Shown: positions 1-38,380, numbered from the whole stretch's first letter. The stretch: 63,847 bases of DNA, filler included, from Psammoneis japonica (GCA_008632985.1; 5 parts of 5 records of this genome joined end to end with filler, not necessarily neighbours in it); one strand, 5' to 3'. Notes: a model not told the origin generated them from the sequence alone. Made by a program: numbers and translations.

Positions 1-615
1 CTGGACTCTCTGGCCAGTTTTGTTTGCACCAGCATGTTGACTTGCTGCATTCTTGCTTGATTTGACTGGCACTTGGGACTGGACCTTCTTCCAGCAGTCT
101 TCAACAAGCTTGACAAGCTGCACAGCTTTTGCAGTTCCTTTCTCTCACACCCCACTGTTTGTTTGCTGCTTGTGCTGTGCTGACAGATCAAGCAGTTTGC
201 TTAGATCCAGGGTGCATTGTGTGCAGAAGTCTGCATTCCAGCTGTGTTTGTGCACGCCGCAGCCACCCCTGAGATTTTGAGATTGTTAATCTTGGCGATG
301 GCATGCTCCTCTGCCAGTTCTTGGAATTTGTCCCTTGCAGGCCTCTCCATGAATGCTGCCAATGGCTTGTGTTTGTTTTCTGTTTTCATCACACTGCTTC
401 CTTTCAATGTGGTGAAGCAGATGTCATCTTCAATGTGACCCTGCAGCTCAACTAAGGTCTGCTCTGGCAGCAGTTAAGTGGATGCTGCAAATTCATCCCC
501 GGCATGATTGGGGATTCCTCTTGTGCCTGTGTTGACAGCAGAGATGTTTGTTGGAAGCTGTGACATTGTTGATGAAGAGCATGGACAGGAGGAGCAATGC
601 CGTTGTCAACCTTCT

Positions 616-878
616 TGTGACGTGATGATGTGATTCTGTGTTTTTCCTGGTCAGTCAGTCATCAGAATCATGTGCACTGAGAAGTCCACAGGTTCTGCAT
701 GATGCAGATTGAACCATGCCACTTTTGTTGGACTTTTGTTGAGGTTGACTGAAAAATGCACAAGAAATTTGCCACTTTTAATCATGACAATTGCCAAGCA
801 TTTTGCAGCAAGTGGTGCTTTGATGGTTCATTGAACACATCAGTGTCACACCAGACCTTCAACCATCACTGTGGTGGA
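616..878 (+). repeat. Possible 5' LTR and tRNA-Ala-type PBS of the gypsy element
   Basis: TGTGAC at 616, GTCACA at 845-850, CA at 867-868, then TGGTGGA at 872, which is complementary to a tRNA 3' end ...UCCACCA. No matching 3' LTR was found. Confidence 0.3.
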
Positions 879-3800
879 CCCTCCTATGGCCAAGTGTGCC
901 AAGTCATTGTCTGCCAACAAATGTCTGGCCAACCCCCTGTCCAAGACCTTCATCCCAAAGAAGCACATCACTTGCATGCATGATCGTATCACCATGAGTG
1001 TTTGTCCTCACATCACCACTGACATGGGTGACACAGAGCATTGTCTGGTGTTCAATGTCAACAAGAATGCCATCATGAACACATCAGGATTGTCCTGCGG
1101 CAACCGCCTCACCATCATGGGCACTCTTGCCATTCAGACAAGCCTTGTTGAAGTCAAGACAGCTGAGTGGAAGAGTGTGGGTCATTGATCACTCAAGGAC
1201 CCTGGGAATCTTGCCATCATGTCACACCACAATGCCGCCAGACCTGTCATCCCAAATTGTTTTGATGGCAATGATGTTCTCAAGCCCATCCAGGATGGTG
1301 CTGTTGCTGATGTCCATCCCAATCACATCATGCATGCCAAATTGCAAGGCTTCATTAACCTCCATCATCTGGATGATGCCATCACCAACCCATCAGTCAT
1401 TTTTTTCATCCACTTGCCTGTGGACAACGTCCAATTCCTCAATGCAGCTGGTGACCCCATTGACATGTGTGCCTTACAAAGACCACATCACCGGACAAGT
1501 TGAGGAGCATCAAACCATTGTCTACACCAACAACACATGGATGGCATCTTGGAGCCATTCAACCTTCAAGTGCCAGATTTCACCAGCCTGAACGAGGCTG
1601 CCCCAGCCACTGAATCTAAGGGCACTCACATTAATTTACTTGTTGTTCAAGCCAGGTTCCAACCAATCCTTCAAAACACACTCTGCACCATCGCTCCAAA
1701 CTTCATACATGACCCCTGCAAAATGTTGAATCAGGTTCATCAGAAGTCTGCCCTGTTCGATGGTGCTGCCATCTGCTCCACCATCCAGGAATGTCACAAC
1801 AATTGCAACATTGTCATTTCCACCTTTCCAAATCATCCGGATGCCCTGTGGCAATCAAACCCTCATTGCACTTTCGTTGACAACCTTGACATCCAGATTC
1901 ATCAGAAGATGGAGTCCAACAGGTGCACAGCTCATGCTCAGTCATTTCACTTTGCTGTTCCAATCAGACACAGCACATCCAGAATGCATTTGAAGCCACC
2001 AAGAAAGCAAAATCCTCTCTTGCTGCAAGTTGCATCTTCATCCAGGGTAAACTCAGAAAGACTCGTTGCTTCACCACTTTGGTTCATTTACCCACTCCAT
2101 CTGTCAAGTCAGTTTGCACATCTCCTGGTGCAGCTGTTGTTCTCAACAGTGCAGCCAAGACTGTCCTTCACAAATGTGTGAATGCTCAAGTGCAGTGCCA
2201 AGAGAAATGCTTGTGTTGTGATCCCAAGACCAAGACCATCACCTGTCCTTGTGCTGATGAGCCCAAAGTTGCTGAATGCGCTGCACAGATTTGCAAGGAT
2301 TTCAATGAATGCACGAAGAAATGCTGCACCAACAACAATTGCAAGTGCACCTCTGGTAAGACCAATCTTGGCAACATCCTCCTTTCTGCCCTTCTGTCTC
2401 CCAATTCAAAGATGAGCAACAATGAACAAGTCATGAACTTGCTTCTCGACTCCATCAAGCAGTCCATCAGCAGCTGCATTGGCTCTGCCAAGGACACCAA
2501 GAGTGACAACAACAGCAAGTCCATGGTCACTCTCAATGCTCTTGTTCTTCAATTGGCATCAAATGGCCTCCCACAGTTGCCTGCCCCAGCTGACAATGCT
2601 TTGCCACACATTGTGCTCCAATTGGGTGCCCCAAACTCAGCATTCAAACCTGGGTTCCATGCCATCATTGACAGTGCAGCCACTCTTGCATGCACGACTG
2701 TTGGATGCCTGTTGCCAAGGCTTGTCCAGAATTGGTTAAGAACATCACACTTGCAAAGGATTGCTGCTCTCCCATTGTCCCATCGGGCATTGTCCGTGTT
2801 GCCAACAATGCGGAGGTGAACGTGTCTACAAACCTCCCTGCTGTTCTTGAGTTTCATCTCCCCCATCTCACTGAGAATGTCCATCCGACTGTGTTCAAGA
2901 TCACCCTGTGCAAAAGCATCTCCATTGACACCATTGCTGGCATGTGAGCCTCATCACAGCCACTCAATTCATTTTGGATTTTTTGGATGACATCGTAGAG
3001 GCTAAGCTGCTTGATTGTGAGCCATTTTGCATCAAATGCAAGACTCCAACTTGTTCCATTCTGAAGCTCATCCCTCATCAGGAACCGGTGTCCAACCTAA
3101 ACCTTTTCACATCAATCAAAGCACGCATTGCAGAAGCCAGCCAGTTTGTTGAAAGCTGTCCCAGTTTGGAGCTGCCCATGGAAACATTCACCACCATGAC
3201 CAAATCAAAAGTCACGTTTGATTTCACTTCTGGTTGGCACAACCACTCATCTTCATTGCATCTCATGATGTCAATCATTTGACACTCTCCATCATGAGGC
3301 ATGATGTCTGGCATTAATCTCATTTGGCTCACAATCATTGCCTGTCATCCATCTGCATCTCAGGCATGACTCGCAAACGATGTCACATTTGAATCCCTAA
3401 ACCCCCACACTGTGCCAAGAAGCTGAACCTTTTCAGAACCTTCCTGACATCCAGGATGACTTCCAATTCCTTCATGAATCTTGCATTGGCAAAGTCATTG
3501 GAAAGAACACTTGCCCAGCTTGCACAGACCAGGACGTCAATCCATCCTTCGTTTCGTGCATGTGTGACAACAAACATGATTCCACTGAACCACAAAAGAA
3601 AATCTCCATCTGAGCAATGACATTCCAGCAGTTGTCAAGGACTGATTGATCAAACAGTGTTGGTGCATGTCACCAGATCAAAATGGAAGACAACTCTGCT
3701 GCCAAGACTGCCTTCGCTGCACCACAAGGATGGGAGCATCATTGCATGGTGATGCCATTCTGCATCATCAACGGACCAACCACCTGTGTCATCATGTCGG

Positions 3801-6800
3801 ATGATCTAAAAGACAACTGGGACCATGAGGCCTGCACAGTAAATTTCACCCTCAATGACAGCAGTGGCACTGCCATTGTCATCGATGAGAACTTCGGCTT
3901 TGTTGAGAGCTGCAACACCAGCCTCAAATGTCTTGAGGTGATTCTTCGTGTCACTCATCTCTGCAACCTGTCCTGGAAGCCACAAAAGTGCCTCTTCTTC
4001 CTGCCATCTGTTGAACTCATTGGACATGATTTCACCAAGGACAGAAATCTCCCAGCTGATTCTAAGAGTGGACTGCTCAAGTGCTGGCTCCAACCTGATG
4101 TCACAGCAGCACAATGGCCCAAACAACTTGATCATGAGCTCAAAGACATCAAAGAGGACATCCTGTCTAAACCGTTGCTTCGCTGCATTGGTCACAATGG
4201 ACGACCCCATCTCCAGACTGATTTTTCAGGATGTGGCATGGGGTGTGCCCTGCTCTAACCAGGTGATGACGAAGCCTCCATCGCTGCCATGGAGCAAGAA
4301 AAGAAACCGGGATTCCACCAGTGAATGCTTGTCAAGTGATCTCCCAATTGCACCAACGTGCAAAGGCATTGAATGCTGCCTTTGTTCATGCATTGGCAAA
4401 GGCATGGCCCTTCAATGGGCAATCGATAAAAATGCCCACATAGTTCATGGTGGGCCATTCACTGATGTTGGCAACTGCTTTGGACTCCATTAGATCATGT
4501 TTTACAATGGCTGCAATCCTGCCATCATGCATCCCCAAATGGAGCTTGTCTCTTGGTGGTTCACTGTTGTCCACTGTCTCAATCACATGGTTGTCAATGC
4601 CAACTGTTTCTTGCATTGTGGCCAAGAGATTGACCTCAACCCTCTCCTTCAACAACACATGACCATCACAGACAAACAATCATGAACTGATCCACCAGCT
4701 GCAACAGGACCAACAGTCCAGCCTGAGAATGTGCCACAATGTTGTCACACCAAATCATTTGCAAATGTGACTCCATCTGAAGCTCACCCATCCAAGGTCA
4801 AAGAAGCCATTGCTCTCAAGAATGTCCCCATCCTTTTTGGTGGGAACCAGTGAAGACATTGCCACATCCAACATCCAATGCTGCAGTGTGACTGACATGT
4901 GCATCATTGGAACTGCTGCAGCACAATTGGGGGCTCTCTGTGGTTTCTCATCCCGTCACTTCTTTTCCGCCTGCATGAAACATCAACTTTCCATTCAAGG
5001 TTGTCATCACTGCAGACAATGACATGCATTGTCACAATCTCCTTCAGGACATTGGATGCATCCCCGTCTTTTTGTCCTCTGCAGCAAACCCAATGAATCA
5101 TGTCAAGCATGCTGCTGCACCCAATCTAGAAGGCTGCTGCATCACGGCACCATCGATGACTGACACTCCTGCTCAATTGTGATTTGTGCAAACCCAAGCC
5201 ACCATTGTCACCACCAAAATGGGACAACAGAGCCATCTCCAATGTTTCATTTTTCAGATTCCAATGGTTTTCAAACAAACTGTCATGTCACAGTTCATCC
5301 CCCTTCAACCCCAGGAGCTTTGTGATCACCGCACTCCCCAATGCAACCGAATCAGAAGTCGATGATGACAAGCTTGTCATTGAGAACACCCATCTATCTC
5401 ACTCACCGTCCCCTCTCAAATCTCAACTCATCAGTCAGTTGACACCTGAAGGACCACAATTGTCCACTCTGTGCAGTGCTGAGACATGCAATGTGGATCA
5501 CCCCACTCTGCCAATCGGACCTTTCAACTGCAACATTTGACCAAGTCCTTGGCAACCACTTCCTCAACAAAGAATCCAAGAAAAGCATCCATTGCATCTC
5601 CGTGTGCAAGCACATCCCTTGCTGTGCACTGGAAAAAACTTGACCTCCTGCAAGTTGTGCAACAATCCTCATGCAGTGATGCAGACTGCACTTGATGAGC
5701 TCACGGACATCCAACCATCTCATGCAGAATTCCTTGACACATCAAAAGACACAGTGCCAGCAGCCACTGCTTGAGCTTTTCTTGCAGGATCCACCTCAGC
5801 CCGTCTCCCTGATCATCAGTGTTGGAAGGACGAGCACTTGTGTGACCCCGAAACCAAGCTTGTGCTCAATGTGGTCAAGAATCCATTCCTCATTGCCAAG
5901 GACAATTTTGAGAAGATCAATTTCCATTGCTGGCAACCCATGCACTCCAGAAACATTGTCATTGAAGATGACATGCTCATCATCAGAGAATCCATTGACT
6001 CTGTTGGCAACTTTGCCAAACTCTGTGTTGTTCCATCATCTCTCAATGATCTCATCTTTGTTGCATTCCATGCCAACCCTGTTTGAAGTCATTTCAGTGT
6101 CTGTTGTGCATTTCATTGAAGCTGCCTTCAATTTTGTTGGCCTGGTGTGTGCAAACATGTGTCCGACCTTATCAGCCAATGCCCAGGATGCACTTTGACC
6201 AATGCTTGATGTTACAAGAAATCCAAGATTGTCTGCTCCTTTCTGGTGGAGACCAACTGTTCAAACTTGTTCATGCCAATGCATGTGTGGTTGGTGGTCA
6301 ACGGTGCTTTCAAGGTGAAAAATGTCAATGAATCTCCTAGATGGCATGACTTAATTTGCAGTCTCAGAGGAAATGCATGGTGAAATCAATGATGAATCCT
6401 TTGGCAAAGCCATCATGAAGATTCTGCCAGCTCACAGTTTGTGTCACACACTCCTTGTTGATGCCAACTCCAAATTTTGTGGCTCATTCATTGAAGCCAT
6501 TGACCTTTTAGGATTTAACCTGCATCAAGCATCAGCAGGCCATCATGACCCAATCCTGATGGAACAATTTCATGCGTTTCTCAACAAGTCATTGTGCATC
6601 TTTTGCAATGAATGTGATTTTGTTTGAACCACTGCCGAAGCCATCCAACTCACTGGTTGTGCATGGAATTCAGCCCCAGTTGTTGGGACTGACTTCAGCC
6701 AATTGCTTGTTGCCTGTTGCCATTGGATGCAAGTTCTGCTTCCCTGTCAACTGCACCAAGTTTGAGTGCATCACCCTTCAACCTGCAACTGAATCCATCA

Positions 6801-8070
6801 AGAATTGCACTGAGCACACTCGTAACCTGCTGTCCAAATGCCAGGAATTTTTTTGAGTTCTCATCCAAGAACATTCCCCTGTGCACCATGAACATGTCAA
6901 TGGCAACCACCCTGATCCACTTGTGTGTTTGACAGGCAACTTTGTTTTTGCTCAACAAGCTGTCAAATCTGACGCCAAACATGGCCGAGTTGATAAAATC
7001 ATGTTCTGCCACACAGGCCCATGGAAAATCATAGAGAAGCTGCCAGGAGCTTCATGTCACATTTGCCACTGCAGCAAATCTCATGCAGAAGACAAGAAGC
7101 ATGCTTCCCATTTGTCCCCTTGCCCCCTCAAACTCATCCCTTTTCCTCCTCTCACTAGACCAGATGCCTCTCATGGGCAGATTGACAGGACCATCAAGAA
7201 GCATCCATTTTCCAAAGCTGGTGTTGACTCCTGTGTGCCTTTTCAACCCTGGAAACTTGATCAAGAGAATGCTGCACCATCATCACAATCATTGCCATCT
7301 GCAGCATCATTGGCATGCATTGACTCTGCTGTGCACTTTCCTTCATCAGCTGAACTTAACGATGAACTTGACAGGGTGCACACCAAAGAAGGATTCCTCC
7401 CAGCTACATTGGACAATCACAAACCCTCGTCAACCAGTGCATTTGTCAGGGTGCTCAAAGGCATCAACTTGTGCACAAATAACATCAGGGACTTGACCGG
7501 CCCTCAGTCCCACATCAGAGTGCCTCCCACACAGCAAACACACAAACTGTCCCACTCAGCACTGAATCTGAATCAGCTCATGTTGTGCATCATCCAGAGC
7601 CATCACAAATTGTTCTTTGTCTCTCATTGAGCTCCTGGCACTGCTGGGGCCAAATGGAATGTCATTCAAGTGAATCTTGAATGCACCATGTCAGAAAATC
7701 CTGACGCTTTCTCTGACTGCAGAATGTGCATTGATTTCTTCACTGACCATTCACATGACACACAGTTCAATGCACCAAATCAATGATTCTGGAAGGAGCA
7801 TCACGAACTCAATGGATGATTTGTCCTGCACAACAACTTTCATCTTCTGAAGCCATCTCTAAATGAAACCATTTGCGCTCGTGAAAAGCATCTGGTTGTC
7901 TTCTCCCAATGGGCACACATCCATCATCCCAATGTTTTCCTTCATGGACCTTTCAACTTTGCAACCATCAATGGACGTCAAACCAGAGATCGCAAGTTGG
8001 CATCCAATTGGAACATCCTGTCCAATCTGTCTGACAAACAGGACAATGAAGCACCCATTTCCAATCTCTT
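872..8070 (+). mobile_element. Decayed Ty3/gypsy-type LTR retrotransposon (protease-RT-RNaseH-integrase remnants)
   Basis: Remnant motifs occur in gypsy order: protease-like AIIDSAAT (~2660-2690); RT KTAFAAPQG..VMPF..NGPTT, IVID and KCLFF..VELIGH (3683-4030); RNase H start HLQTDFSGCGMGCALL (~4210-4255); integrase Zn-finger region PSSL.DLIFVAFHANP (~6030-6085); integrase core (6250-6900). Many stops and frameshifts. Ends are approximate. Confidence 0.8.
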
Positions 8071-8659
8071 GAATCTGTCTTTTTTTGCACCATGTCAACA
8101 CACAGTTTCACAATGTGCATTGTGATCCATTTGTTGAGGTGCAGCCCTGTTAACACACGAACATGCCTGCAACATGCAAACCACATGATTTTGAGAATTA
8201 CTGGCTTGGTTCTCACAACCTCATTTTCAAATTTATTTGCCCGCCAAAACAGGCACACTCGTCCAAAATGGACTCCCCCTTTTTTCTTTTTCTTTTTTAT
8301 TCACACACACACACCATGTTTTTGTCATCCCAACTTTTTTCCCTGGTTCACATCTCTCCTCTTTTTTTTTCATGGAGAAGCCATTCTGAAAAAGCCACAG
8401 CTTTTGCCATCTTTTTGGGGTGGCTCAAAAGTGCAGCTCATGCAAGCCAGCATCACTTGGCCATTTGTCCATCAGGAAATTGCCAATCACCAATGGTCTC
8501 CTTTTATTCACCACTTTTCACCTCACCACAGGAGAAGCAGCAGCTCATGATTTTGAGAATCACTCGCTTTTCACACCATTCCACTTTTAAACCTTCCCTG
8601 AATGCAGAAAAAAAGGTGGAATTCTCCCACCAGATGATGTCAATGAAAAGACCATTGAC

Positions 8660-9163
8660 ACAGTGTTTGAGGCACTTCAGAAGAAACATCCAGACCTGAG
8701 GATTCAGGTTGAAGACCAATTTCACAAGTTTTGTGAGCTGCCAGAACTTCAAGACACACTCATCACCGATGATGCTGTCAAGACTGTTGCACGAAAACTA
8801 TCCGGAAGTGCTGCAGGACTTGCTAGATCTGATGCTGACACAGTGTCAGAATGGCTTCTCTGTCATGGGAAGGCCAGTGGATTGCTTCAAGAAGTGTTGT
8901 GGACACTCACAAATTGGCTGGCAAACAAATCACCTCTGTGGGCTGCCTGCCATGCAATCATGGCAAAGCCACTTGTCGTGCTGGATAAAAATCCGGGCAC
9001 ATCCCTGGTCGGCACAGGAGAGGCATGGCAATGAGCCGCTGCCAAAGCCATTCTTCTGGCTGCTGGAGCAGAGGCCAAGGAAGCTTGCAGGACAAAACGG
9101 CTGTGTGTTGGACCAGAAACAGGCATCGAAGGCACTGTCCATGCAATGAGCATGCTCTGGGAA
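8660..9163 (+). mobile_element. Non-LTR retrotransposon RT fragment (CRE/Ambal-like), truncated by a copia insertion
   Basis: Translation LSGSAAG..SDA...WLL.HG.AS..L...L..LTNWLAN.SP.WAACHAIMA..LVVLDKNPG...VGTGEAW...AKAIL...LCVG...GIEGTVHAM matches the CRE-type RT N-terminal pattern. It stops at the LTR start (9164). Confidence 0.7.
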
Positions 9164-9407
9164 TGACAGGATTTGAACAAGATTTTAGTTTATCACACAT
9201 AATTATGTGTGCTCTTGGTTCCGCGCGCATCGCGTGATGTAGTTTGCTTTCGAGCCACAGGCTCACAAGAATAACAACAGTAGCACTGATGTCACAACAC
9301 CAGTCTTTCGGCTCCTGTAACGGTCTCTGCATGGAGACTCATCTGCTATTTAGACAGCAGCAAGGAGTTATTGTTTTCTTCCACCCAGTCATCTTCATTT
9401 TCTGTCA
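9164..9407 (+). repeat. 5' LTR of copia (CoDi-like) copy A
   Basis: Termini TGACAG...CTGTCA. Homologous to the LTRs at 40963-41238 and 62394-62666. Followed by the same 17-nt PBS as copy B. Confidence 0.9.
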
Positions 9408-9424
9408 GATTAACAGTCTTGCTC
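9408..9424 (+). promoter_or_regulatory. Putative primer-binding site GATTAACAGTCTTGCTC (copy A)
   Basis: Lies immediately 3' of the LTR. The same 17-mer lies next to the 5' LTR of copy B (62377-62393, - strand). Confidence 0.65.
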
Positions 9425-12400
9425 TTTATTGTCCATTGAGCGTTCATCATCGTCATCGAGAAATTTTTTCGACGACGCGCACCATTGGCGGTGGAAGTAC
9501 ACATCTACCTTCTTCACTGCTGGATGCTGGATTAAATCTACACATTTGGATTTATCCAATGCCTCCCATCGTTGGATGTGTTTATTCAACGGATATTTGT
9601 TTGACCAGGAATTCTCCCGAATTCTCAGACATCCGAGATTCCGGATTCCTTGTAACGGATCCTGCCAATCCATCTGCTCGCGTCCACGCCCACACGACAT
9701 AAACCCCTGACTCTGGCTCTGCTCCACGCACGCCAAGTCTACCGCATTGTATCTACACCAGATTGCTGGTCTCCTCTACAGTCCTACAAGGTCCACGAGG
9801 ACAACTGTGAGAGGAAGCAGTTCGTGATTGCAGCCTGCGTTGGGGCGAGGGTGCATTTCCCACGTTTGTTTGTCCCTCCACAGTGCCAAATTTGGCCGGC
9901 CTGATCGGGTTATCCAACCAACATAAAATGAGAACGGTTTGGAGGTCTTGTCCACCTCTAGTTAGCTTGTCAGCAGGGGTTTTTAACCCGTTGCTCCACT
10001 CTCAAGCAACCCAAAGTGTCACCAGCTGCGGGTTGGGACATGCCGGCACAACTCTACAGACCGGATAGGAAGCTTGGCACTTAACTATGAATGGGACATC
10101 ATGGCCCGGTGGCTTCTGACTCTTAAGATAGTTCAAGACATCAAGTCAAGATTCAAGTCAAGTTTCAAGTTATTTCAAGCCCACACTTCGATTCTAGCTA
10201 GTTCCGACATCCACCCAGTTGCAACATGGTTCTCACCAGGCAACAGCAAATCGATGGCCTGGAGCACATTCTAGGCACTGTTCTGATTGTGCTCCGCCCT
10301 CAACATTGATGGAACCGATTCGCATCAGGACCTTTTCACTTTTACTCCGATGCAATTGGATGCCCTTGTGTGCAACGACGGCACCAATCAAATGCCTTTG
10401 CCATGTGGTTACAAAGCACAGATAGCTGCGTTGATTAGCCTGTACATGGTAAAAGCGCACGGCAGCGCGGATGTTGGCAATGACCCTCAATTGTTCACAC
10501 AAGAGGAGTTCACCAACTGTCGTCTTAGTCCTGAGCATGCAGCATCCCTCTCCATGGGTACAGCACCATCTGCTCCCACTCCTGGCTCGTTGCCACCCAA
10601 ACCACGTGATCCTATGCATGACTTTAAACGAGGCATCAAACGTGACTTGCCTTCGCGCTTCTCAAGTCTGACAAACAGTGGCACATGTGGCACACCTTCA
10701 TCATTGCGCAGGCCCGCTCCCAAGACGTCGCACACATTCTCGAACCGACGTACAAGCCCTCTACAGCTGAGGACAAGGCCCTGTTTGATGAACAACAGAA
10801 GCACATGTTTGCAGCATTCAAACGGATCTTGCAGAATGACAAAGGCAAGGCACTTGTTTGTCAACACGTCGGCTCCTCTGATGCTCAAGCGGTCTATCGT
10901 GACCTCTCCAAGTACGCCCCTGCTTCCACTCGCGCATCCCTGGAGTCCTCGACCCTTCTCACGTACCTCACCACTGCTCGCCTTGGTGATGGCACCTGGA
11001 AGGGATCCACCCATGCCTTCACACTTCACTGGCAGGACCAGCTCCCCAAGTGTGAAGCTCTCATCCCGGGTGCAGACCAACAACCACAATGTCGTCTACT
11101 CTGCCTCCACCCACAAGTCAACTTGCAAAGGTGCTCTCGTGGATCGTGGTGCAAACGGAGGCATCACGGTGATGATGTTTGTGTCATTGCCCGCACCAGT
11201 CACCAGGTTGATGTCCAAGGCATCGATGATCACCAACTAGTGGACATTCCCATTGTCACTGCTGGCGGTGTCATCCACATGCAATGCGGCCCTGCCATTG
11301 CCATCCTTCACCAGTGCGCCTGCACTGGAAAGGGGAAGACGACACACTCTTGCGGCCAGCTCGAGTGGTGCAAACACGATGTCAATGATTGGTCCATCAA
11401 GGTTCCCAATGGTCTGCAGCGTGTCACCACCATTGATGGACATGTCATTCCCATCGACATTAAAGCCAGCCTCCCATACATTGCCATGCGCCCGCACACC
11501 AATGCCGAATGGGACACTCTGCCGCATGTCATTCTCACTGGTGATGACACATGGGATCCATCTGTCCTTGACCACCAATTTACGGATGATGAGAAGTGGC
11601 ATGATGCTGTGTCTGACCTCCAAGACGACCCGACTACCAACCTCTTTGATGAGTTTGGCAACTGTCGTCACCGCCATGTTGTCAACAACGCCATGCTTGC
11701 AGACTCCGACCTTGATGATCACCTGCTCCTGACATCTGATTTCTTCTGTGAATGCCATGAGCATGAACTCCATCCCAAGGATCCCGACTTTGAGTCCCTC
11801 CGCCCTTGCTTTTGCTTTCTCCCGAAGGACACTGTTCACCGCACTTTCGATTGCATGATGCAGTGTGCCCACATGCCAGCCAGCACGCACCTGAAAAAGG
11901 CGTGCAAATCGCCCAACCCGGCTCTCAATGTCCACCGACGTAATGAACCCATTGCCACCGACACGGTCCACTCTGACACCCCTGCCATTGACTCTGGTTG
12001 CACCAGTGCCCATCTCTTTGTCCGCACGGAATCTCTCGTCACTGATGTGCATGGCACAAAAACTGACAAAGACTTTGTCAACACCCTCGAAGACAACATT
12101 CATAATCGCGGTGCCCCGTCCAAGCTCATCAGTGACCGTGCTCAGGTTGAGATCAGCAACAAGGTTCTTGGCATCCTTCATGCCCTCTTCATCTCTAGTT
12201 GGCAAAGCAAGCCTCACCACCAGCATCAGAATTTTGCTGAACGCCGCTACCAAACTGTGAAGACCATGGCCAACACTGTCATGGATTGCTTCGGGTTCCT
12301 GGCTTACACCTGGCTGCTTGCCCTGATGCACGTGTGTTTTGTGCTCAACCACACGGCATCCACCAAGCTCCACTGGCGTGCCCCCACCGAGGTGCTGTCT

Positions 12401-13080
12401 GGCTCTACTCCCAACATCAGCCCGCTCCTCCGCTTTAAATGGTGGGAACCCATGTGCTGCCACCTGGATGATTCCAACTGGCCGTCCGAATCCTGTGAAT
12501 TACGTGGTCACTTCGTTGGCATCACCAAACACGTTGGTCACCAAATGACATTCAAGATTCTTGCTGACAACACTCAGAAGATTCTCTGCCGTTCCAACGT
12601 GTGCTCCACCCATGATCCATCTGCTCCAAACCTGCGTCTTGGTCCTCCTGAAAAGAAATCTGCTGACCCTGTCATTAAATCCTGCCACGACTCTGAGGAT
12701 TCGCCAGATTCACCAGATGGGGAGGTGATCAGGATGCCCAAAATGCCGGTCTTTGACCCCGAGGATGTCATCAAACGCACCTTTGTACATGAAGCCACAA
12801 GAGGATGGACAACGCCACAGAGCCTGCATCAACAAAGCCATTGAGGACCAGGACTGGAAAATCAGAGAAATCCTGAACTGGTCAAGTTCATTTGCTCCAT
12901 CAACAATGACGAATACGAGGAAGTCCCAGCCTGCAACGACATCATGCACCACATTGAGCAAGAAGACGAGGACACAACCCTCTGGAAGTTCCGATGCATT
13001 GTGTCGCACAAAGGACCATTGCGACCCCATGATCCCTCTTGGAAAGGCTCAAACTACAACGTCATGCTTGAATGGGAGAA

Positions 13081-13647
13081 GACGTGTTCCAGCCGCACGT
13101 GACCCAAATCGTGCACAAAAACGACATTTGCGCGATTTTTGCGCGATCTCTGACTTACGAACGGTTTTTCACCACCAAAAGTATAGATTTATACAAATTC
13201 TAATGTTTTGCAACACTAACAAGACTCGTGTGAGTGTTGCAAAATCATTGTTATTGTGCCATCAATGTTTTTCATTGCGATAGACGAATCGTAACACAAC
13301 TGATGATTTTCGGCGAAATTATTGCCGTTATTTGGATGTTAACTAAATATATCTTTCTACGATGCTTTTTTGGTATATTTTCCACTTACAAAGAAACTTT
13401 TGTATAAAGAGTACTGACGTACAATCAGTATGATGTCTACTGAGGAAGTTTATGATACATATCCCATGAGGAATTTGATACCCCACAAAAAACTATTTAA
13501 TTCTTCATAATTATTCATACTCTAGACGCCTATAAAAGCCAATCCGCTTAAGTATTTTATATGAAAATGCTTCATACACTAATAGATACATAATTTATAT
13601 TCAAAATCGATTGTCGTTTTGTGTGTCACCTGGGACTGGAACACGTC
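13081..13647. mobile_element. 567-bp non-autonomous TIR element (MITE) with 4-bp TSD AGAA
   Basis: Perfect 12-bp TIR GACGTGTTCCAG/CTGGAACACGTC that extends imperfectly (20/23). AGAA flanks both sides (13077-13080, 13648-13651). Removing it restores ..LEWENGEVTS.. of pol. The interior is AT-rich. Confidence 0.92.
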
Positions 13648-14931
13648 AGAATGGGGAGGTCACATCCAAACCCCTTGCCATCATTGCCAAGGACGACCCC
13701 ATAACCTGTGCCATCTACGCGCGTGAGCACGGCCTTCTAGACACCGAAGGATGGAGATGTTTTCACAAGATAGCCCTTCGCCAGAAGAAGCCATTCCGCA
13801 TGGCCAACCAAGCCAAGTTACGCTCCTTTCGCACTGCGCCACGATGCAAGTGCGGGCATGAAGTGCCACGGGACTACAAGCATGCCATGGCCCTTGATGA
13901 GCGCAACAGCAACCGCAAGTGGGGAGACGCAACGGACCTCAAGATGACTCAGCTTGATGAGTGCGAGGTCTTCCACGACTGCGGACACCACAAGGACTCC
14001 AGTGCCCCATCAGGACACAAGTGGATCCGGGTGCATCTCGTCTGTGACGTCAAACATGATGGACAGCACAAAGCAAGGATTGTTGCCGATGGACACCTCA
14101 CAGACGTGCCCGTTGACAGTGTCTGTTCTGGAGCAGTGTCCCTCCGTGGCCTGCGAATGATGATCTTCCTCACCAAACTCAATGAACTAGAGACCTGGGC
14201 CACTGACATTGGGAATGCCCACCTCGAAGCTACGACCAAGGAGAAACTGTACATCGTAGCAGGCCCCGAGTTCGGCGCCCTGGAAGGACACATCCTTGTC
14301 ATCCACAAGGCCTTGTACGGACTCCGCAGCTCCGGCCTCAGATGGCATGAATGCTTTGCCAATTGCTTGCGTGCTGAAGGCTTCTTCCCATGCAAAGCCG
14401 AACCTGACATCTTGCTGCGTAGGAATGGTGACCACTGCGAATACGTGGCAGTGTATGTGGACAACCTAGCCTTTGCCATGAAGGACCCCCAGGCTTTTGC
14501 AGACACCCTCATGGAGAAATACAAGTTCAAGCTCAAGGGCACTGGACCATTGGAGTTCCATCTTGGCTGTGACTTCACCCGTGACCCAGACGGCACCCTG
14601 TGCCTTGCCCCCCGCAAGTACATTGAGCGCATGGTTGACAACTACGCGCGCCTCTTTGGGGAGAAGCCCCGCACTGATGTGCTTTCACCCCTTGACAAGG
14701 GTGACCACCCTGAGCTCGACACCTCCAAATTACTCAAACCGGAGGGCATCCACCAATTCCAATCCTTGATTGGATCCCTGCAATGGGCCGTATCTCTGGG
14801 TCGCATTGACATTACTGTGGCTGTCATGTCCCTGTCTAGCTTCCATGCAGCGCCCCGTCAAGGCCACCTAGACCATGCCAAATGCATCTGCGGATTCCTC
14901 TCCAAGATGCGTCATGGCACCCTCCGAGTGC

Positions 14932-29474: not shown

Positions 29475-30021
29475 TCGCTGTGCTGCAGACAGAGTGTGTC
29501 AGCACGCAACTCTGGGCATGAGAGTTTGGCGCCATTCAGTGTTGACAGGTGCACTGACAGCCACACTCCAGTTTTGGTGCTGCACTGGCTGGGCAGCTCT
29601 GGCCTTGATGTCAGGTGGAGTCTTGAGGATTGACCTGAGTTGCTCTTTGTGCAATTTGGCTTTCCTTCCGGATGCTTCTCTTCTTGCTTCACACACAATG
29701 TCCTTGTGAACTGCCAAAGAGAATTGAGAACAGCTGCACAGCAAGTCCATCACATGCAAGCATGTGGGAATGCCACATTTGCAGTTTTGGGTCACAGACT
29801 CCATCGGACAAGGGTCAGATGGTCCTGCAAATTTGATTGGGTTGGCAGATGGGGCCAGCCCAGGATCATCATTGGTCAAGGTCTTGCCGATCACAGCGCT
29901 GGAAGGAACTGGTGCTGGATGATGCACTCTGCTTCAGCAAAGGATTCTCCACAGTCCTTCATTGCATGTTGCACATGGTGCCAATGGCACGTCAGTGACT
30001 TTTGCAGACCTGAGCAGGCAG

Positions 30022-31085
30022 TCACTCTGTGGGTGCTGATGAGTCGCCATCTTTGCAAGTTCTTGGCTGGATGACCAAGGTCCGCAACATGGCTTTTTCT
30101 TCCAACCACCTGTCTTGTGCATCTGTCTCTCTGACAAAGCCTCTGAGGCAGCAGCTGCCTGATGTGACAGCAAAGATGAGGTCTCCAAAGTGTGCTTTTG
30201 TGACGCAAGAGCCACCCTTCTTGCAGCATGCTCCATGCGCAGCTGGGCACGTCTTCTTGCTACAAAGATTGCCTTTACCACCAAAGTGACCTCCTTTGCG
30301 CAGGCAGGGCTTTTTCTTGAGATCAAGGCATTTGCCCTCGTCTTTAAAGCAACAAGATCCTCGAAGTTCAATCGGCTTTGGGTGACAACAGCATGGATCG
30401 TAAGGCTTTGGCGCAGGATGAGGCGTGGGCTTTGGGGGCGGTGTGTGCTTCTTATGAGGTTTTGGGGCAGGGCAAGGAGTGGGCTTTGGGGGTGGTGTGC
30501 ACTTGCAAGGCTTGGGGGTGGGGTGAGGCATTGGCTTCTGGGTTGGGCATGGCATCGGCTTCGGAGTCGGGCAAGGCGTGGGCTTCAGGGTTGGGCAAGG
30601 CGCGGGCTTTGGAGCAGGGCAAGGCGTGGGCTTCAGAGTTGGGTGTGGCATCAGCTTTGGAGCAGGGCAAGGCATGGGCTTTGGAGTTGGGCACTCCTTT
30701 GGGTGTGGCGTGGGCTTCGGGGTTGGATGTGATGTGGGCTTTGGCTTGCAACAATGCAGCTTGTCAGGCTTTGGGGCAGGATGCGGCGCAGGCTTCGGGG
30801 TGCATTTTGGACCATGTGAGGGCATTTGTTGCAGGGCACACACTCAGCTCCATTTCCCAAACAGTTTCCTCCCCTCCTCCAGCAGTTTCCAGGCCTGAGG
30901 ACGAGACACTCTTTGAGTCCGTAGCAGAAGCAGCATGCGCCACACTTGGGCGTGGCTTTTTTGTGCCAGTGCAACTGCCTGTTGACAAGAGCTTCCTGTG
31001 CATCTTCGTGCTTTGGGCTGTCCTCATGGCCGTTGACAGACTTAAGGCACCAAATGCTCACAATCGAGCCAAAGGCGAACTTCAT
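30022..31085 (-). pseudogene. Secreted Pro-rich (PTPKPTPY-repeat, extensin-like) protein gene, TpA-eroded and frameshifted
   Basis: Signal-like MKFAFGSIVSIWCLKSVNG; Cys modules GACCFC and GSCCFK..KCL; 24-nt tandem repeats encoding P(T/A)PKP(T/M/A)P(H/C). Confidence 0.7.
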
Positions 31086-34000
31086 CTTCTTCTTGCACCC
31101 TTTGCCAAAACTCTGTTTGCAAAAAAGTGAGAAGTTCCTGCGATGTGTGCGAACGGGTGCTGTGACTTGAGGTCAAGGTTGCTCCATCCACCAGCAACAT
31201 TTGTTGTGACAAGTGAGCAGACAATGACTGTCTTCACAACTGTTTCCAATGCCAGCATGCCTGCATGACAGACAAGTGATTGTGTTTTCGTCAACAGTTG
31301 GTTCAGGACAAGTCAAGCATTTGAAGGGCAGGAGGGCACAAATTGTCGTCTAAGAGAATGTGTCTGACAAGTGTTTCAGTTGTTAAAAATGACACTGCTC
31401 TGGAGGATGTTCAATGGACATTTCTGAAAAACCTGCATTGTCCTCAGACAATTTGGAAAGCTTGAAATCAAGATTGATGTCTTCAAGACATTTCATGAGC
31501 ACCCAAGACTTTAGTCTGCGCTCTGTGCACTTGGATGCCATCGAGTTCAACGATCACTGAGCAATGCAACCTGTTGGCCCCAGTGAAGGAGCTTGCATCA
31601 CCAGGATTGCCTTGTTCATTTCAACACTGCTGGAGATCGCTGCGCAGGTGCGGGCAGTCCATTGTGAAACCAGAAGATGCCGCAAACTTTTCTCTCATCA
31701 CATCACTTCTTTGAGCATGCCATCCGAACGGAAGGCAATCTTTCACCTTTTGGTTTTGAAACACAAGGAGTGTGATGCAAAGGAGTTAAAAGCCTTTGCA
31801 TGATCATTCACTTGTGCAATTTGCATCTTTTCCTTTGCAGAGGAACTGCAGTTCATTGCACACAGTGTGAGTGTGCAAACAACCCAGTGGATTCCACACA
31901 CACTCTTTCATCAAAGATCTGGACACAGAGGCACAAATTCTTCTTCAAACATTTGTTGCTTCTGGCAAGCCTGCGAATGATGTCATGCATCTTCTTCACA
32001 TCCCCAATGGCACAAGCGCCTTCAAGAGCTTTTGGGCGCTGGTGCACACATGACACATGCGCACTGTGATTTTTCCTGCTGCCATCGAAGGGACAGGCAG
32101 CATTCAGAATGTCCAAAAGAGCAGGACAATTTGCTGGTTTGCTCTCCAATCTGTTTGCATTGGGCTCTGAACACTTTTGGACCTCGAGAACATTGCAGAT
32201 CAAATTGTAGAATCCAGTGCTTGAAAAGTCTGCACTGCCGGCAACAACACACGCAATGTTGCCAGACAGGGAAGAAATGCTCATTGTCTCAAAGTTGTTG
32301 GCAGGAATTGATGCAGTGGAACAGGTGTCCACCAAATTTCAATCCTTGTCAAAGGCTTCGAGAATGCCAATGTCATCTAAGTCATCAGTGATGGCATCGA
32401 GCGACACACAAGTTGGAGCAACGACGAAATCGATTCGAAGTTTTGCCTTGGACCAACCTCCCCAGAGACTTTGGAAATGCCACATGTCCATGCCAAAAAC
32501 AATGGATCCCATTGATGGCATGAAGGGCTGAAGGAAGACATTTGGATTGATTGCACAAACCTCATTCGTGCCACTCATTTTTGGCCCCACGGCCTGGAGT
32601 GTGACCCCTGGAAAAGCATTGCCCATTGGAGAATTGTTTGGAAAGCCATCTGCATCAACCGCAACAAGAACAGCAATGAAGGGAGCCACCAGAATGGCCA
32701 ACAGCATGCTGACAAAATAATTGCAGCAAGAGGAGTCCATTGTGCTTTGAATGCAGTGGCTGTCTGCTCTTGGAACACCTCAACCTTTTTGCACTTTTTT
32801 CTCACGTCATGTGGGCACATCCTCCCATCCAAAACACACCAGCTGCTGCCACATCTTGACGTTTCTCAATCAAGAATCATGAAAAAGCTTGTCAAGAGAT
32901 CAACAAGACAGTCTGTGGCAGCATCAAGTGGTGGAGCCCCCGGGTTCATTCATTGGTCTCATTGTTTGACAGTGAGTGTCGTTGAAGAAAAAACCAATGT
33001 GTCACGACATTGTCGGTCTGACAACATGTGTTGACACCTTCACACAATGACTTGTTAAATTGGCCATCATTGGCTTCTTCACAGTCACAAGAAAAAAGTG
33101 CCACACTCACATGACCCAACAGTTTGCGTGTGAGTGAGGCTCACATTTTCAGAAAACAGTGCTTCGTGACTGTTTTGCACCAACTCGCAACTCGCTGCAC
33201 CTCCTCTTGGAGGGAGCAATGTCACCTGCAAAATTTTCTGCTTGTGTTGATTCACAAGCAGCTTAAAAATGAGTCACAAAACCAAATGTGGTGTTGAAAT
33301 TTTGGACAGACAATGTTGGTGCACATGAGTGCAATTTGCTCAACAAATTGCTGTTTGAAGCAAGACGATGATGACAAACACTTTCCATGCACTGTCAGAC
33401 AATGACTTTGCAATGGCCACTTGACACACTAACATGCCACACTGCTGTGAACACGAACATGCAAAGAAAGTTCCCCAGGATGAAGTCTCAGTCATTCAAT
33501 GTTGAATGCATCAAAAGTGACCAGCAGAAACAACAGCAGCAGAGTCTCTCCGCAATGTTTTGAAAATGAGTTGGGGCTGTTCTGGGAGACTTGCACAAAT
33601 GAATGCTCTCACAAAATGAACTGAGTGTTTGTAAATGCAAAAGAATCCAGGAACACTGGCATGACAAACATTTTGACAACACACCACCTTCATGTCGCTG
33701 CCTTTTGCCAGCAGCGACAAGGCACACAGCACACCACACATTTCTGGCACAGCAGAAAATCCTGAAAATCAAATCCTCTTGCCTTTGCCCTTTTCTCCTG
33801 TGATTGCCTTAAAAAGCACATGCTGACGTTGTTGGTTGTCAGCACCAGCATCGGGCTGAAAATCAGCATGAGGACCAGACAGCCGATGGTGGCGGTCATG
33901 ATGGCCATCATTCCCGATCCACTGCTGCATCATTGTTGTCTGCTCATTGAACTGCAATCCCAGTTGGGGCAATCCAGTGCAGTGTTCATGGCAGATTTCC

Positions 34001-35979
34001 TCTTGCAGTGTGATCACCTTCAGCTTGTTCTTTGCCCGGTTCACAAATTCCTTGGCACCACTTGTGCATGACATGGACAGCTGTTGGGGTTGCTCGGGGG
34101 CCACAACATTCCTTCTTGAAGGTGAAGGTGCTGACAAGTGAGCTGGAGTTCACATTGGGAGCCCACCAGAAATTGAGTCACCCCTGGCAATGGCATGGAC
34201 AACCACCATTGTTGCATCTCCACCATGAATGACTTGAACCACCGCTGCACCTCTTTTTCACAATTGGGTGCCTCCAGTGACTGAAAACTTGGCTCTGAGT
34301 GGAGTCATCATTTGAAGCCAGCCGTCTGTTCCTGAGCTGCCCAGTTGGTCAAAATGGAGACAAGCAAGAGTTCAGAGCAGCAATGATGCATCATCTCTGA
34401 TGGTTGTCAAATGAGACTCAGTCCTCACCAAGGGTTCTCTGACAACATGGTGACAAGCCTCAACAATGAACAAAGGGCTTGTCAGTTGTTCCTCTGTCAA
34501 GCTTCCATTGTGACAGGCATTTTGCAGGAACCCGGATGTGTTCCAGAAGTTCAGACTTGTCCGCTGATCCAAACTGTTGTGGTGCAAACAAGCACATCCC
34601 TGAACAGAGTGAAGCTTCAAGGGATGTTGAGTGGTTGTCCTTCCTCCACTCAGAAATGCTGCCAATCTGCTTTGTGAGACCAGCTCCCAAACATTTGCGT
34701 GCGGGTTTTGAGAAGTGGTGATTGTTCAGTTGAGTCAACCACAATGCACGAACCTTGTCCATGAAAAAACTGCTCTGGAAAAGTCGCCATCATCATTTGT
34801 CATGATGAAGAAGAGTGCAACCTCTGAAGCTGTTGCCATGAAGAAGAGTGCAATCTCTGCCACTGCCGCAGAAGCAAATGAAAACAAGAAGCAAAAGAAA
34901 AAGAATCAGACCCATTCCTCTTCCTTGTCATGGGGATGATGACTGGTGGTGCAGACCACAGCAGCTGTGCTGTGTCAACCATTGCATCAAACTCAGGACT
35001 TGGCCCCTCAACTCACCTGAGGTGATGCCAAGACAACAATGGCCCATCTGGCTGCCACCAAAACTGCAACCACAACTGCCGACAATGCAATGACTCCCCA
35101 TCAACATGTCACTGCTGACCATGACAACAACAGCAATGTGCTCATCTTTGGCAGCAAATGTGGAACAAAGGTGCAGCAAGTGGGTGTGGACATGGAAGTT
35201 GTTGACAACAATTGAGCCACGGAATCCAATGAGGCAAGGTGACAATGACATGTGTCACTGATGGATGAGTTGACCAAGGACATGTTCTTGCAGAACCTGC
35301 ACAAATCTCCTTGTCATCATTTAAGTCCAACAACAACAACAAAATCCATGAACACAAACAATCGCATCAGCACCATGACTGCAGCAAACAATGCCAACCA
35401 AGCAACAACTGGGGCAGGGAAAGACAAGAAAGACAAGAATGTCATCACAGTGGCAGAGTGCAACAAAGATGCCAATCAGACAACAATGACAACCAAGGCA
35501 GCCAACATGCCAGCACAACAGAAAAATGACGAAATTGCCAATCTGCTGTGATTGCCACCCTGTGGACAAATTGTGCACATGGGGGGACAACCCTGCTGGA
35601 TCCTGCAGCAGCCATCCCATTGCTGCCTGACCCTCACCACCATGGTCTGGAGGACTTGTTGTCACCCTTTGGTGGCTGGAGGCAACCTGTGTGTTGGCAA
35701 CAACATCGACAATGACAAATCATGCCATGGAAGCAGCTGAGTTGGGGAGCACAGCACTCACCCAATTTGCTGCAATGATTTGGGGTGCCATGACATGATT
35801 GTGGCTCACAACATGACCAGTCTGTTGCATGGTGTGACAAGGAGAAACCATGCAACCTGTCCAACATTTTGTGTGGAAATGTGTCAATGACCAGTGCCAT
35901 CACAATGCACCCATGTTGCAAAACAAGTTGTCCAAACCACCCTCATCCAGGATCCCTTTGGAAAGAGGGTTGCATCTGA

Positions 35980-37240
35980 AAACAGACACTCTCAAGGCAA
36001 GGCAGTCACCCTGTGTGGAGATTGCCCAGACCTTTGATTGAACCATCTTGGTGGTCCCCCTTGAATCTGATTGGAGCAGCAATTTTGACATTGCTTCCAC
36101 ACCTCACCAAAGCTGGCAGCTTTCTCAGTCAAAACAACAAACAAGATGCCCATGCAGCCTGTTCCAGCTCCAGGTGATCCACAATCCATCATGCAAGGAA
36201 GAAGATGCCAGCCAAGGGTTGCATTTGGCACAGTGCAATCCTTTGATTTTGATTGTTTCAAAAATTGAAAGGTGGGTGTGCAAAAAAAACAAAGTTTTGT
36301 GTGCACTCACCCCTCTGTTTTGGAAAAAAGAAATTTAAGGAGCTTGTTGTGCCAAGTGCAAAAATGGGCCAGTGACAGATCGTGCCCCTTTTTTTGGACA
36401 CCCGAAGTTGGAACAGGCCATGCCTTTGGTGCACAACCCTCCCCAAACACCCAAAACCATGGCAGTGGAAACTGCCACGGCCACAATGAGCAAACACAAC
36501 CATTGGAAGAAGGAGGAGGAGGAGGAGACCAAGAACCAAGCAATGGATGCAACAACAACTGTCGGTGCAAACCAAGAAAATGTGGCAAACAGCGGCAACA
36601 AGTTGACATGACTTTGACCAAAATTGAGCCAGAAGATGAGCAATGGCCCAAACCATTGAAAATCATTCTACTTGTGAAATCGCCATGTGGGGAGGGGTTT
36701 CAACATGTGGGTTGGTGGCTGCACAAGTCCATCATCTGGTTCAGGAATTTGGTGTTCATTTGACATTGAGTGTCAACCAAGTGGCTGCATGATTGCCAGC
36801 CAATCCCATCACCTGGTGGTGGCTCCCTTTGCCACTGTTGGATCCATTGGAGTCATTGTCAAAGGTCTGAATTTCAACAAGATTGCCCAAAAGTGCAGCA
36901 TCAAGCCTCTTGTCATCAAGGGGCTGGGACAAACAAGAATTCCCTGAGTGTGCATGGCCCAGTCATGGAAAAGGAAGAAAAAGAAGCAGAGGCCCAACTT
37001 GCAAAGACACACACCACCTTTGAGCAGCTTTGTGGGGCAGAAGGTTGACCTGTTCTGGCCAGCACCATTGACCAAGTTGCTGATGGAAGCATCTTTGTGG
37101 GCCAGGAGGCCTTGGACATGCAAGTGGTGGATCTTCTGCAAATCTCAGAAGAGCACATCATGGGTCACATCCAAGCAGGTGATTGAGTGTTGCATCTTCA
37201 TCAATCCATTGGACCAAAGTTTTCATGACAAGTTTGCTTG
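35980..37240 (+). pseudogene. Peptidase S49 (SohB/SppA-like) pseudogene
   Basis: IILLVKSPCG (cf. SPGG), SGCMIAS (cf. SGGYMMA), VAPFATVGSIGVI..LNFNK. Multiple frameshifts; TA- and CG-poor. Ends approximate. Confidence 0.65.
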
Positions 37241-38129: not shown

Positions 38130-38380
38130 GCTGCCCTTCATTTGAAAACATGGCCCATCACATCATGATGTTGCCCTTCATTTGAAAACAGAGCCCATGT
38201 TGTTGCCTTTCATCACATGATGTTGCCATTTGTCACAGCCCATGTTGCCTTTCTTTTGAAAATGCTGCAGGGCTCATGATGTTGCCCTTCACAACATGAT
38301 GTTGCCCATCTTTTGATGATGATGTCCTTTCTTCTTGTTGCCCTTCATGACATGGCATTGCCCTTTCTTGTTGCCCTAGA
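38130..38380. repeat. Degenerate short tandem repeats (CATGATGTTGCCC-like)
   Basis: Several copies of ATGATGTTGCCC / CCCTTCATTTGAAAACA. Confidence 0.6.

Follow-up and report, generated by a model that had tools for sequence, protein, structure and literature searches.

The window analyzed here is a stretch of 63,847 nucleotides from the diatom Psammoneis japonica (GCA_008632985.1). It contains pieces of Ty1/copia retrotransposons in which conserved tyrosine codons have turned into cysteine or histidine codons. We conclude that the repeat-like DNA of the window, copia elements included, has probably been subject to a DNA-level process that acts on both strands and changes TA into TG or CA, in addition to CpG decay, and that would stem from a base modification or a deamination. 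TA is the ancestral state, the changes depend on the neighboring bases, both strands are hit, the loss is confined to domains, and it proceeds independently of the loss of CpG.

The window is not a single molecule. Five contigs of about 14 kb are chained in it by linkers of the form N44-TTAATTAATTAA-N44 (14932-15031, 29375-29474, 43587-43686 and 57649-57748), which have stops in all six frames, and features are not to be read across these four joints. The three copia pieces all lie at contig ends, and each is cut by one. Copy A extends over 9184-14931 (+ strand), copy C over 40963-43586 (- strand), and copy B from 57749 to about 62667 (- strand). Element A starts with its presumed 5' long terminal repeat (LTR; 9184..9458, + strand, delimited by self-blastn and alignment, with 13 TA and 11 CG). 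This is followed by the leader, gag, protease and putative integrase (9459..13077, + strand), where conserved Tyr are replaced by Cys or His, and by the reverse transcriptase (RT) part (13652..14931, + strand; Pfam RVT_2, E=2.3e-25), which is cut by the contig end. Its frame is open over 10646-12841 and has one stop, at 12842-12844, and the RT has YVDN instead of YVDD. Copy C retains an RT-RNase H part (41186..43586, - strand; RVT_2, E=2e-26) in an 800-codon open frame that the contig end interrupts; it has lost 14 of 20 conserved Tyr and is adjoined by a 3' LTR copy (40963..41239, - strand, 2 TA and 17 CG). Copy B runs from gag to integrase and the start of the RT (57749..61577, - strand) and is frameshifted into three open reading frames (ORFs). 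Upstream of it lie a leader and a 5' LTR copy (61999..62748, - strand, with the LTR at 62394-62667) of normal TA content. The 277-bp repeat shared by the two latter LTR copies (90.6%) recurs at 9184-9458, where it is 80% identical to both and was used as an outgroup. These are the expected LTR positions, and no element is complete within a contig.

The copia-type RT (RVT_2) found in A and C places these pieces in copia, and 1520 homologues match at E<=1e-20, those listed being all PF07727. Upstream of the RT, where Pfam recognizes no family, A and B can be aligned to the N-terminal regions of long homologues. Both A and B/C belong to a very abundant CoDi-like Ty1/copia family and are dead. The initial annotation of this DNA had counted A, B and C as three copies. 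A is indeed separate, but the first 455 bp of B's contig match the last 455 bp of C's contig in the same orientation at 97.6% identity, hence only two independent elements are compared, A and B/C. B and C are accordingly the halves of one element, or else near-identical copies or alleles. The DNA identity between A and B/C is 69-78%.

The peptides from which that annotation had read the exchange of Tyr for Cys or His are real: all ten strings occur exactly (A, + strand, 10889-14528; C, - strand, 42284-42976; B, - strand, 60687-60773), and TAT or TAC in one copy faces TGC or CAC in the other, as claimed. To polarize these differences we scored 8000 candidate homologues of the C reading frame, and from the 1520 at E<=1e-20 we kept the best 120, all RVT_2 and 54-67% identical, to which A and B/C were aligned codon by codon. 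A column was called conserved when there was at least 80% agreement among at least 10 of the 120 homologues. The counts exclude gag, where homologue coverage is nil, the tail of A's first frame, which runs into an insertion, and the frameshifted tail of B's third ORF. Two of the quoted examples, AVYRDLSKY and LTYLTT, lie in gag and have no outgroup, as no homologue covers it.

Tyrosine is lost far more often than other conserved residues in both elements. Element A is changed at 71 of 400 conserved columns, which comprise 13 of 20 Tyr columns (7 Cys, 2 His, 2 Phe, Leu and Gly) and 58 of 380 columns of other residues (Fisher p=1.8e-6). The corresponding figures for B/C are 58 of 524 overall, 19 of 25 for Tyr (13 Cys, 3 His, 2 Phe and Trp), and 39 of 499 for other residues (p=3.9e-15). 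At three columns (690, 734 and 1418) one element has Cys and the other His, with Tyr in 62/63, 58/67 and 119/120 of the homologues, respectively. Four columns have Cys in both elements, against 3.6 expected under independent hits. The relatives keep Tyr at these columns (at least 80%, mostly above 95%), so that TA is ancestral and TGY or CAY derived (R and Y stand for purine and pyrimidine). The replacements are rare among the relatives: when each homologue was taken in turn as the test sequence, 118 of the 120 had at most two changes of Tyr to Cys or His, the two others (P0061 and P0106) having 8-9, and most of the environmental loci described below have none.

Transitions were inferred wherever a single base separates the observed codon from the conserved residue. 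Almost all of them (71/75) are either CpG decay or TAY>TGY, equivalently RTA>RCA. More precisely, G>A follows a C in 21/23 cases in A and 8/8 in B/C, and C>T precedes a G in 7/7 cases in A and 4/5 in B/C, so that 40 of the 43 inferred C>T or G>A changes are at CpG; CG representation (rhoCG) is down to 0.07-0.3 in old domains. The A>G changes are in T-A-Y in 8/9 cases in A and 16/16 in B/C. They include cases that span codons, namely Ile>Val and Thr>Ala behind a codon whose last base is T, as well as Ile>Met as ATA|C>ATG. All seven T>C changes are in N-T-A, six of them in G-T-A. Comparisons at the DNA level give the same picture. The nine substitutions in the 455-bp overlap of B and C are all of these two kinds, with no transversion (0/9), and 22 of the 23 between the two B/C LTR copies are transitions, with one transversion (1/23). 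Over 30936-31721, the window shows TG or CA at 18 of the 19 differences listed, where another contig has CG or TA. T-A-pyrimidine, on whichever strand it stands, is therefore the target, which RTAY has twice, once per strand, and YTAR lacks altogether.

The survival of TA in the window follows this rule. We classed stretches of 1-2 kb as normal or depleted by their TA content and counted the flanks of the TA in each class. RTAY falls from 170 in 14 kb of normal DNA to 4 in 27.3 kb of depleted DNA, a length-scaled survival of about 1%. The sites with the target on one strand are intermediate, with 155 YTAY in normal and 26 in depleted DNA (about 9%) and 127 and 29 RTAR (about 12%), while YTAR counts 75 in both (about 51%). 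The contrast with YTAR is highly significant for RTAY (p=6e-26) and for one-sided sites taken together (282 and 55, p=5e-14). A second census, by tetramer, used a somewhat different choice of stretches (19.6 kb normal, 26.2 kb depleted) and gave survivals of 0 for ATAT, 0.015 for ATAC/GTAT, 0.04 for GTAC, 0.31 for CTAG, 0.46 for CTAA/TTAG and 0.86 for TTAA. The flank discrimination of the TA loss thus spans about a hundredfold. The flank preference is absent for CpG, which survives at 27-32% in all four flank classes.

The loss of TA is separable from the decay of CpG and is faster. At 48-49 kb, rhoTA is 0.02 with rhoCG at 0.91, and the LTR copy beside C has 2 TA against 16 in the LTR copy upstream of B, for 17 and 20 CG, respectively. 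These two contrasts show that the processes can be told apart.

Both strands are hit, as the initial annotation had proposed. This is seen in the columns where Cys of one element faces His of the other, in T|AY>T|GY changes across codons, and in GTA>GCA. The LTRs, once polarized with that of element A, give 4 TA>TG and 5 TA>CA. The survivors of the depleted domains are symmetric (26 YTAY and 29 RTAR), and all aligned sites of A and B/C include 17 TA/TG and 22 TA/CA differences. A marked excess of one strand would speak for another kind of process, and the 20 Cys against 5 His of the window copies look at first sight like such a bias. However, a Tyr codon is always TAY on the sense strand and is TAY on the antisense strand only after a purine, hence the excess of Cys does not indicate a strand bias. 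Accordingly, the outcome was 4 Cys and 4 His where a purine comes before the Tyr codon, and 14 Cys and 1 His where a pyrimidine does (p=0.033). The same signature is found in domains other than copia. With both strands hit, this bears out the preference of that annotation for mutation of integrated DNA and makes ADAR-type editing of the RNA intermediate appear unlikely. Its observation and its reading thus stand, apart from the independence of B and C; it had overlooked the TAY flank rule, the window-wide extent of the loss and the decay of CpG.

Within single contigs, 1-kb and 2-kb windows alternate between two states. The normal state, with rhoTA of 0.5-0.7 and rhoCG of about 1, is found at 18-20, 26-28, 38.5-40.4, 45-47 and 51.7-57.6 kb. 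The depleted state, with rhoTA of 0.0-0.1 and rhoTG/CA of 1.7-2.6, is found at 1-9000, at 15-17, 21-25, 29.5-38.4 and 47.7-51 kb, and from 62749 to the end. The copia copies fall in between (rhoTA 0.16-0.26, element A 0.26), and whole loci of intact-looking relatives mostly have 0.5-1.0. The strongly depleted domain at 1..9000 has a rhoTA of about 0.09, a rhoCG of about 0.19 and a rhoTG/CA of 1.7-2.0. In this most depleted domain, a weak RT match at 3650-4255 (+ strand; Pfam RVT_1 at E=4.9e-4 together with RT_RNaseH_2 at E=3.3e-3, neither reaching the curated cut-offs) is probably the remnant of a gypsy-type element, too decayed for a motif-by-motif reading. The domain at 29475..38400 is also strongly depleted: positions 34001-35000 have zero TA, and at sites where the window shows TG or CA, other contigs of a sequencing run have retained TA or CG. 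CpG is largely kept in the depleted domain at 47687..51000 (rhoTA 0.02, rhoCG 0.74-0.91 in its first part). The last one, at 62749..63847, contains tandem repeats, has 0-2 TA and 0-2 CG per 250 bp, and has a sharp edge against the LTR copy.

Single-copy host genes in the same window are unaffected. The control region at 51687..57648 has rhoTA of 0.54-0.63, rhoCG of 0.9-1.2 and ordinary TAY codons for Tyr. It encodes a cysteinyl-tRNA synthetase (51964-53757, - strand), which is 62-68% identical to proteins of Cylindrotheca, Attheya, Cyclotella, Thalassiosira and Seminavis, and thereby identifies the host as a diatom, and the beta subunit of an AP complex (from 54282, + strand), whose matches in a protein search were uninformative as to taxonomy. 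Unique and probably non-coding DNA at 38.5-40.4 kb also retains 8-12 TA per 250 bp. Past the 3' LTR edge, 40459-40962 has 1 TA in about 500 bp with normal CpG, and a unique-depth contig of the run covers it without differences. This TA-poor zone, with which an ORF at 40467-41021 (+ strand) coincides, may be a spill-over or an unrelated old fragment.

Element A contains an insertion of 574 bp (13078..13651) that is absent from C and resembles a miniature inverted-repeat transposable element (MITE). It has the terminal inverted repeat ACGTGTTCCAG, a target duplication of about 9-10 bp (GAATGGGAG-like), an AT-rich interior and an internal palindrome at 13202-13249. It is not depleted in TA (rhoTA 0.81, rhoCG 1.43), and is thus either younger than the depletion or exempt from it. 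The nesting of this untouched insertion in an intermediate element A, itself inserted into nearly TA-free DNA, gives the order of their ages.

We compared contig 3 at 80% likeness with the contigs of one public sequencing run, which is probably the source sample of the assembly and not independent of it. A search for runs containing this DNA led to a single study and listed no RNA sample. There were 6400 matching contigs. Summed word depth, which is not a copy number and indicates only that there are many related contigs, was 78,000-247,000 in the copia part, about 32 in neighboring DNA, and 32-230 in the depleted 29.5-38 kb, with peaks of 716 and 2527. The differences from the run contigs amount to 661 transitions and 165 transversions. 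Over long pieces, including a depleted one of 2812 bases, run contigs match the window with 0 differing letters.

The loss of Tyr is also found outside this assembly. We scored 80 metagenome loci that encode copia relatives at 23 conserved Tyr positions. In 60 of them there is no change of Tyr to Cys or His, and eight have at least four: L024 (17/22), L062 (11), L071 (7), L025, L053, L054 and L066 (6 each) and L060 (4). Tyr loss of this kind thus concerns a minority of the copies, or of the organisms that carry copia. The most affected locus, L024 (1-2766), has a rhoTA of 0.02, with 3 TA in 2766 bp, and keeps Tyr at 1 of 22 positions. The replacements add up to 36 His and 27 Cys over these eight loci, and to 11 His and 6 Cys in L024. 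Since the same loss appears in separately assembled metagenome contigs, it is not an artefact of the present assembly.

These results suggest the following scenario. After integration, copia elements and the surrounding repeat-like DNA underwent two context-specific transition processes on both strands, of which one is the ordinary decay of CpG to TpG or CpA and the other, faster and separable from it, a change of A to G at 5'-T-A-Y-3', which equals T to C at 5'-R-T-A-3'. A hit on the sense strand of a Tyr codon gives Cys, and a hit on the antisense strand, mainly after a purine, gives His. Tyr is selectively lost because TAY is the only amino-acid codon that is itself a target, and dead copies keep long open frames because TAA and TAG arise from neither process and are removed by the one that acts on TA. 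Most likely, a repeat-specific modification or deamination has left the TA loss behind, much as 5-methylcytosine (5mC) leaves the CpG loss. There are two conceivable routes. The T of RTA might be oxidized or otherwise modified, and oxidized thymines mispair with G; or the A of TAY might be deaminated to hypoxanthine. Either mark would be deposited on silenced repeats and fixed as A:T>G:C. Both routes start from one and the same motif, each seen from its own strand, so that the attacked base and the enzyme are indistinguishable in the sequence. The process looks enzymatic rather than like a general mutation bias, given the near-absence of transversions and the roughly hundredfold flank discrimination. 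A more specific proposal, which we make tentatively and rate somewhat short of an even chance, is that some diatoms have an enzyme-driven, repeat-directed A:T>G:C mutator, a sort of "reverse RIP" (RIP, repeat-induced point mutation), specific for 5'-TAY-3' on double-stranded DNA. Its agent would be a natural DNA adenine deaminase, of which we know none, or a TET/JBP-like thymine modifier whose product mispairs with G, and it would inactivate transposons through the loss of Tyr codons while leaving their frames open.

An undirected decay could produce part of this pattern. A species-wide bias of mutation or repair toward TA>TG/CA, without any targeting, might be visible only in old, unselected and perhaps poorly repaired heterochromatic DNA. 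This would fit the increase of depletion with apparent age, from the untouched MITE-like insertion through the copia elements to the nearly TA-free DNA into which these inserted, and the unique depth of some depleted stretches. Yet the probably non-coding unique DNA at 38.5-40.4 kb keeps its TA in the very contigs where other domains lost it, the edges of the domains are sharp (for example at 62749), the flanks matter about a hundredfold, and transversions are so rare in the LTR copies and in the B/C overlap that the process must outrun the background by an order of magnitude. We thus regard undirected decay as unlikely. The editing of adenosine to inosine in retrotransposon RNA by an ADAR- or ADAT/TadA-like deaminase, followed by reverse transcription into DNA, would explain why Cys outnumbers His 20 to 5 in the window copies. 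The preferred site of TadA/ADAT-type deaminases has a U just ahead of the edited A, and in bacteria TadA turns the Tyr codon TAC of mRNA into one for Cys. This is nevertheless very improbable, since the footprint is not restricted to the sense strand: there are antisense hits (Tyr>His, Val>Ala at GTA and the five TA>CA of the LTR), the depleted domains are strand-symmetric, and TA/CA differences (22) are not below TA/TG ones (17). Moreover, the motif explains the excess of Cys, His exceeds Cys in L024, and the depletion reaches DNA that has no copia similarity and, beyond the edge of the LTR, about 500 bp at unique depth.

We find it hard to credit that errors in the sequencing, the assembly or the consensus of a highly repeated family created the pattern. 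It is true that the contigs end inside repeats, that the LTR and leader of B look mosaic, and that the sole run compared is probably the assembly's own sample. But its contigs agree with the window over long pieces without a differing letter, even in the depleted 2812-base piece, Tyr loss recurs in separate metagenome contigs (L024, L062, L071, L025, L053/54 and L066) and in two database proteins, and TAY-specific transitions limited to domains fit no familiar error mode. That there is no damage at all, the organism reading TGY and CAY differently or the Cys and His variants being selected and functional, has a negligible chance of being right. The 800-codon open frame of copy C would be expected in that case, but a mutation spectrum unable to produce TAA or TAG leaves such frames anyway. 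The host genes of the window use TAY for Tyr and translate normally, as the likeness of the cysteinyl-tRNA synthetase to its diatom orthologues (62-68% identity) attests, the non-coding LTRs carry the same changes, A has YVDN in place of YVDD, and B is frameshifted.

Several observations count against a repeat-directed modification or deamination as the origin of the TA loss. The classes of the census were picked by total TA, and it is only the flank-dependent survival that is independent of this choice. That the depleted domains are repeats is established in part, as some depleted stretches (35.1-36.1 kb, 40459-40962) are at unique word depth. The unpolarized comparison of A with B/C has a weak preference for a pyrimidine at +1 (34/60), and the raw spectrum of their RT parts, with 180 transitions and 114 transversions, is unremarkable; because the two lineages diverged before insertion, the context signal in such comparisons is weak. 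The rule that His requires a preceding purine comes from 23 codons of the window (p=0.033) and fails in the environmental loci (overall p=0.71). In L024, a pyrimidine precedes 10 of the 11 His codons, which sets this locus apart from the window, and the flank rule may be lineage-specific or the motif incomplete. Next to B, the leader with its 5' LTR copy (61999-62748; 13 RTAY in 250 bp) is undepleted between the depleted body of B and depleted tandem-repeat DNA, which suggests a mosaic or chimeric contig, or else a younger sequence or a recombinant. Finally, an enzyme or a base modification as the cause is something we infer from the sequence alone.

We rejected the use of the LTR pair as an insertion clock or as proof of change after integration, since B and C may be different copies or alleles, their LTRs have 2 and 16 TA, and the leader and LTR of B are undepleted. 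The pair served for the outgroup-polarized direction alone.

Some other features of the window deserve mention. Tandem or nearby direct repeats (67-434 bp, 67-94%) occur at 48368-48534, 49280-49448, 50380-50757, 51122-51272, 63057-63840 and 22745-23133, mostly in depleted domains. Long overlapping open frames on both strands are found at 8591-9338 and in other depleted domains; with TAA and TAG erased, only TGA stops are left, and ORF lists are therefore inflated there. Of 21 ORFs from depleted domains searched against Pfam, 19 had no match, the others giving the weak RVT_1/RT_RNaseH_2 matches (below cut-off) and an XPG nuclease. The latter frame (20538-22721, + strand) is XPG/EXO1-like, with XPG_N and a partial XPG_I, in-frame TGA at 21390 and 21960, and a TA-poor tail. 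The stops may belong to introns, or the whole may be a pseudogene copy that has suffered the same process. A 520-codon open frame at 15274-16836 (+ strand), in a TA-poor domain, encodes Cys-rich repeats, a Pro/Thr-rich stalk and a hydrophobic segment, with zero tyrosine. We identified no Pfam family in this ORF (15274-16833) and no homologue among 435 candidates, and it could be a depleted member of a surface-protein gene family.

An enzyme behind the TA loss, if there is one, would be nature's equivalent of the engineered adenine base editors, or else point to a new mutagenic DNA modification. In such genomes, dead elements with long open frames pass as intact for gene callers, the erasure of TAA and TAG creates spurious ORFs in several frames, LTR-divergence dating overestimates ages, and binning or transfer detection based on dinucleotides is misled. 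The signature is easily scored from the counts of RTAY and YTAR and from changes of Tyr to Cys or His at conserved columns, which makes a survey of algal genomes feasible. There is a substantial chance that the chemistry behind the TA loss is new. To our knowledge, no modification of T or A at a TAY motif is known in diatoms. We found no report of a loss of TA to TG or CA in repeats of diatoms or other algae in the openly accessible literature searched, and in the accessible text of the founding CoDi paper (PMC2806351) we found no mention of transitions, RIP, dinucleotides or hypermutation.

In overall behavior there is a likeness with the RIP of ascomycete fungi, which also makes dense transitions in a short context on both strands of repeat and transposon DNA and spares adjacent single-copy genes. 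However, RIP changes C:G to T:A, mostly CpA to TpA, and thereby creates TpA, AT-richness and stops, whereas the process in the window changes A:T to G:C, destroys TpA and erases TAA and TAG. TpA is at a rho of 0.0-0.26 instead of being raised, and the C>T and G>A changes are nearly all in CpG context (40/43). As for duplication, the copia part has many related contigs and 29.5-38 kb has other copies, while some depleted stretches are at unique depth. The accessible part of a study of diatoms (PMC9998398) describes DNMT4 enzymes related to the RIP factor RID, with function unassigned, and methylated transposons, which would fit the CpG component and not the TA loss. The decay of CpG through 5mC resembles the TA loss in that a self-complementary pyrimidine-purine dinucleotide turns into TG or CA on either strand of silenced repeats, in the same domains. 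The two differ in target, as the loss described here strikes TA and needs a pyrimidine after the A, a flank preference that CpG loss lacks; the loss of TA is also faster than that of CpG and separable from it.

The modified thymine of dinoflagellates offers a plausible chemical route to T>C at RTA. According to the available text of PMC11572971, 5-hydroxymethyluracil (5hmU), made by TET/JBP enzymes, replaces T preferentially in TA and TC, is enriched on repeats and is linked to transposon silencing. The likeness lies in the modification of T at TpA on repeats. This is another lineage, however, a mutational footprint is not reported in that text, and in the literature searched we found no evidence of 5hmU in diatoms. 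The editing of hyper-edited retroelements by ADAR, ADAT or TadA shares the change of A to G, with U or T before the A and the recoding of Tyr to Cys, but acts on RNA and on the sense strand only, whereas the window has changes on both strands and in non-copia DNA. APOBEC editing also marks dead retroelement copies with context-specific deamination damage. It turns C into U on minus-strand cDNA, which gives G>A in the sense strand, while in the window C>T and G>A are nearly all at CpG and the distinctive change is A:T>G:C. Known hypermutation of repeats is either C>T, as in RIP, 5mC decay and APOBEC editing, or A-to-I at the level of RNA, and a DNA-level A:T>G:C change at a three-base motif differs from all of these.

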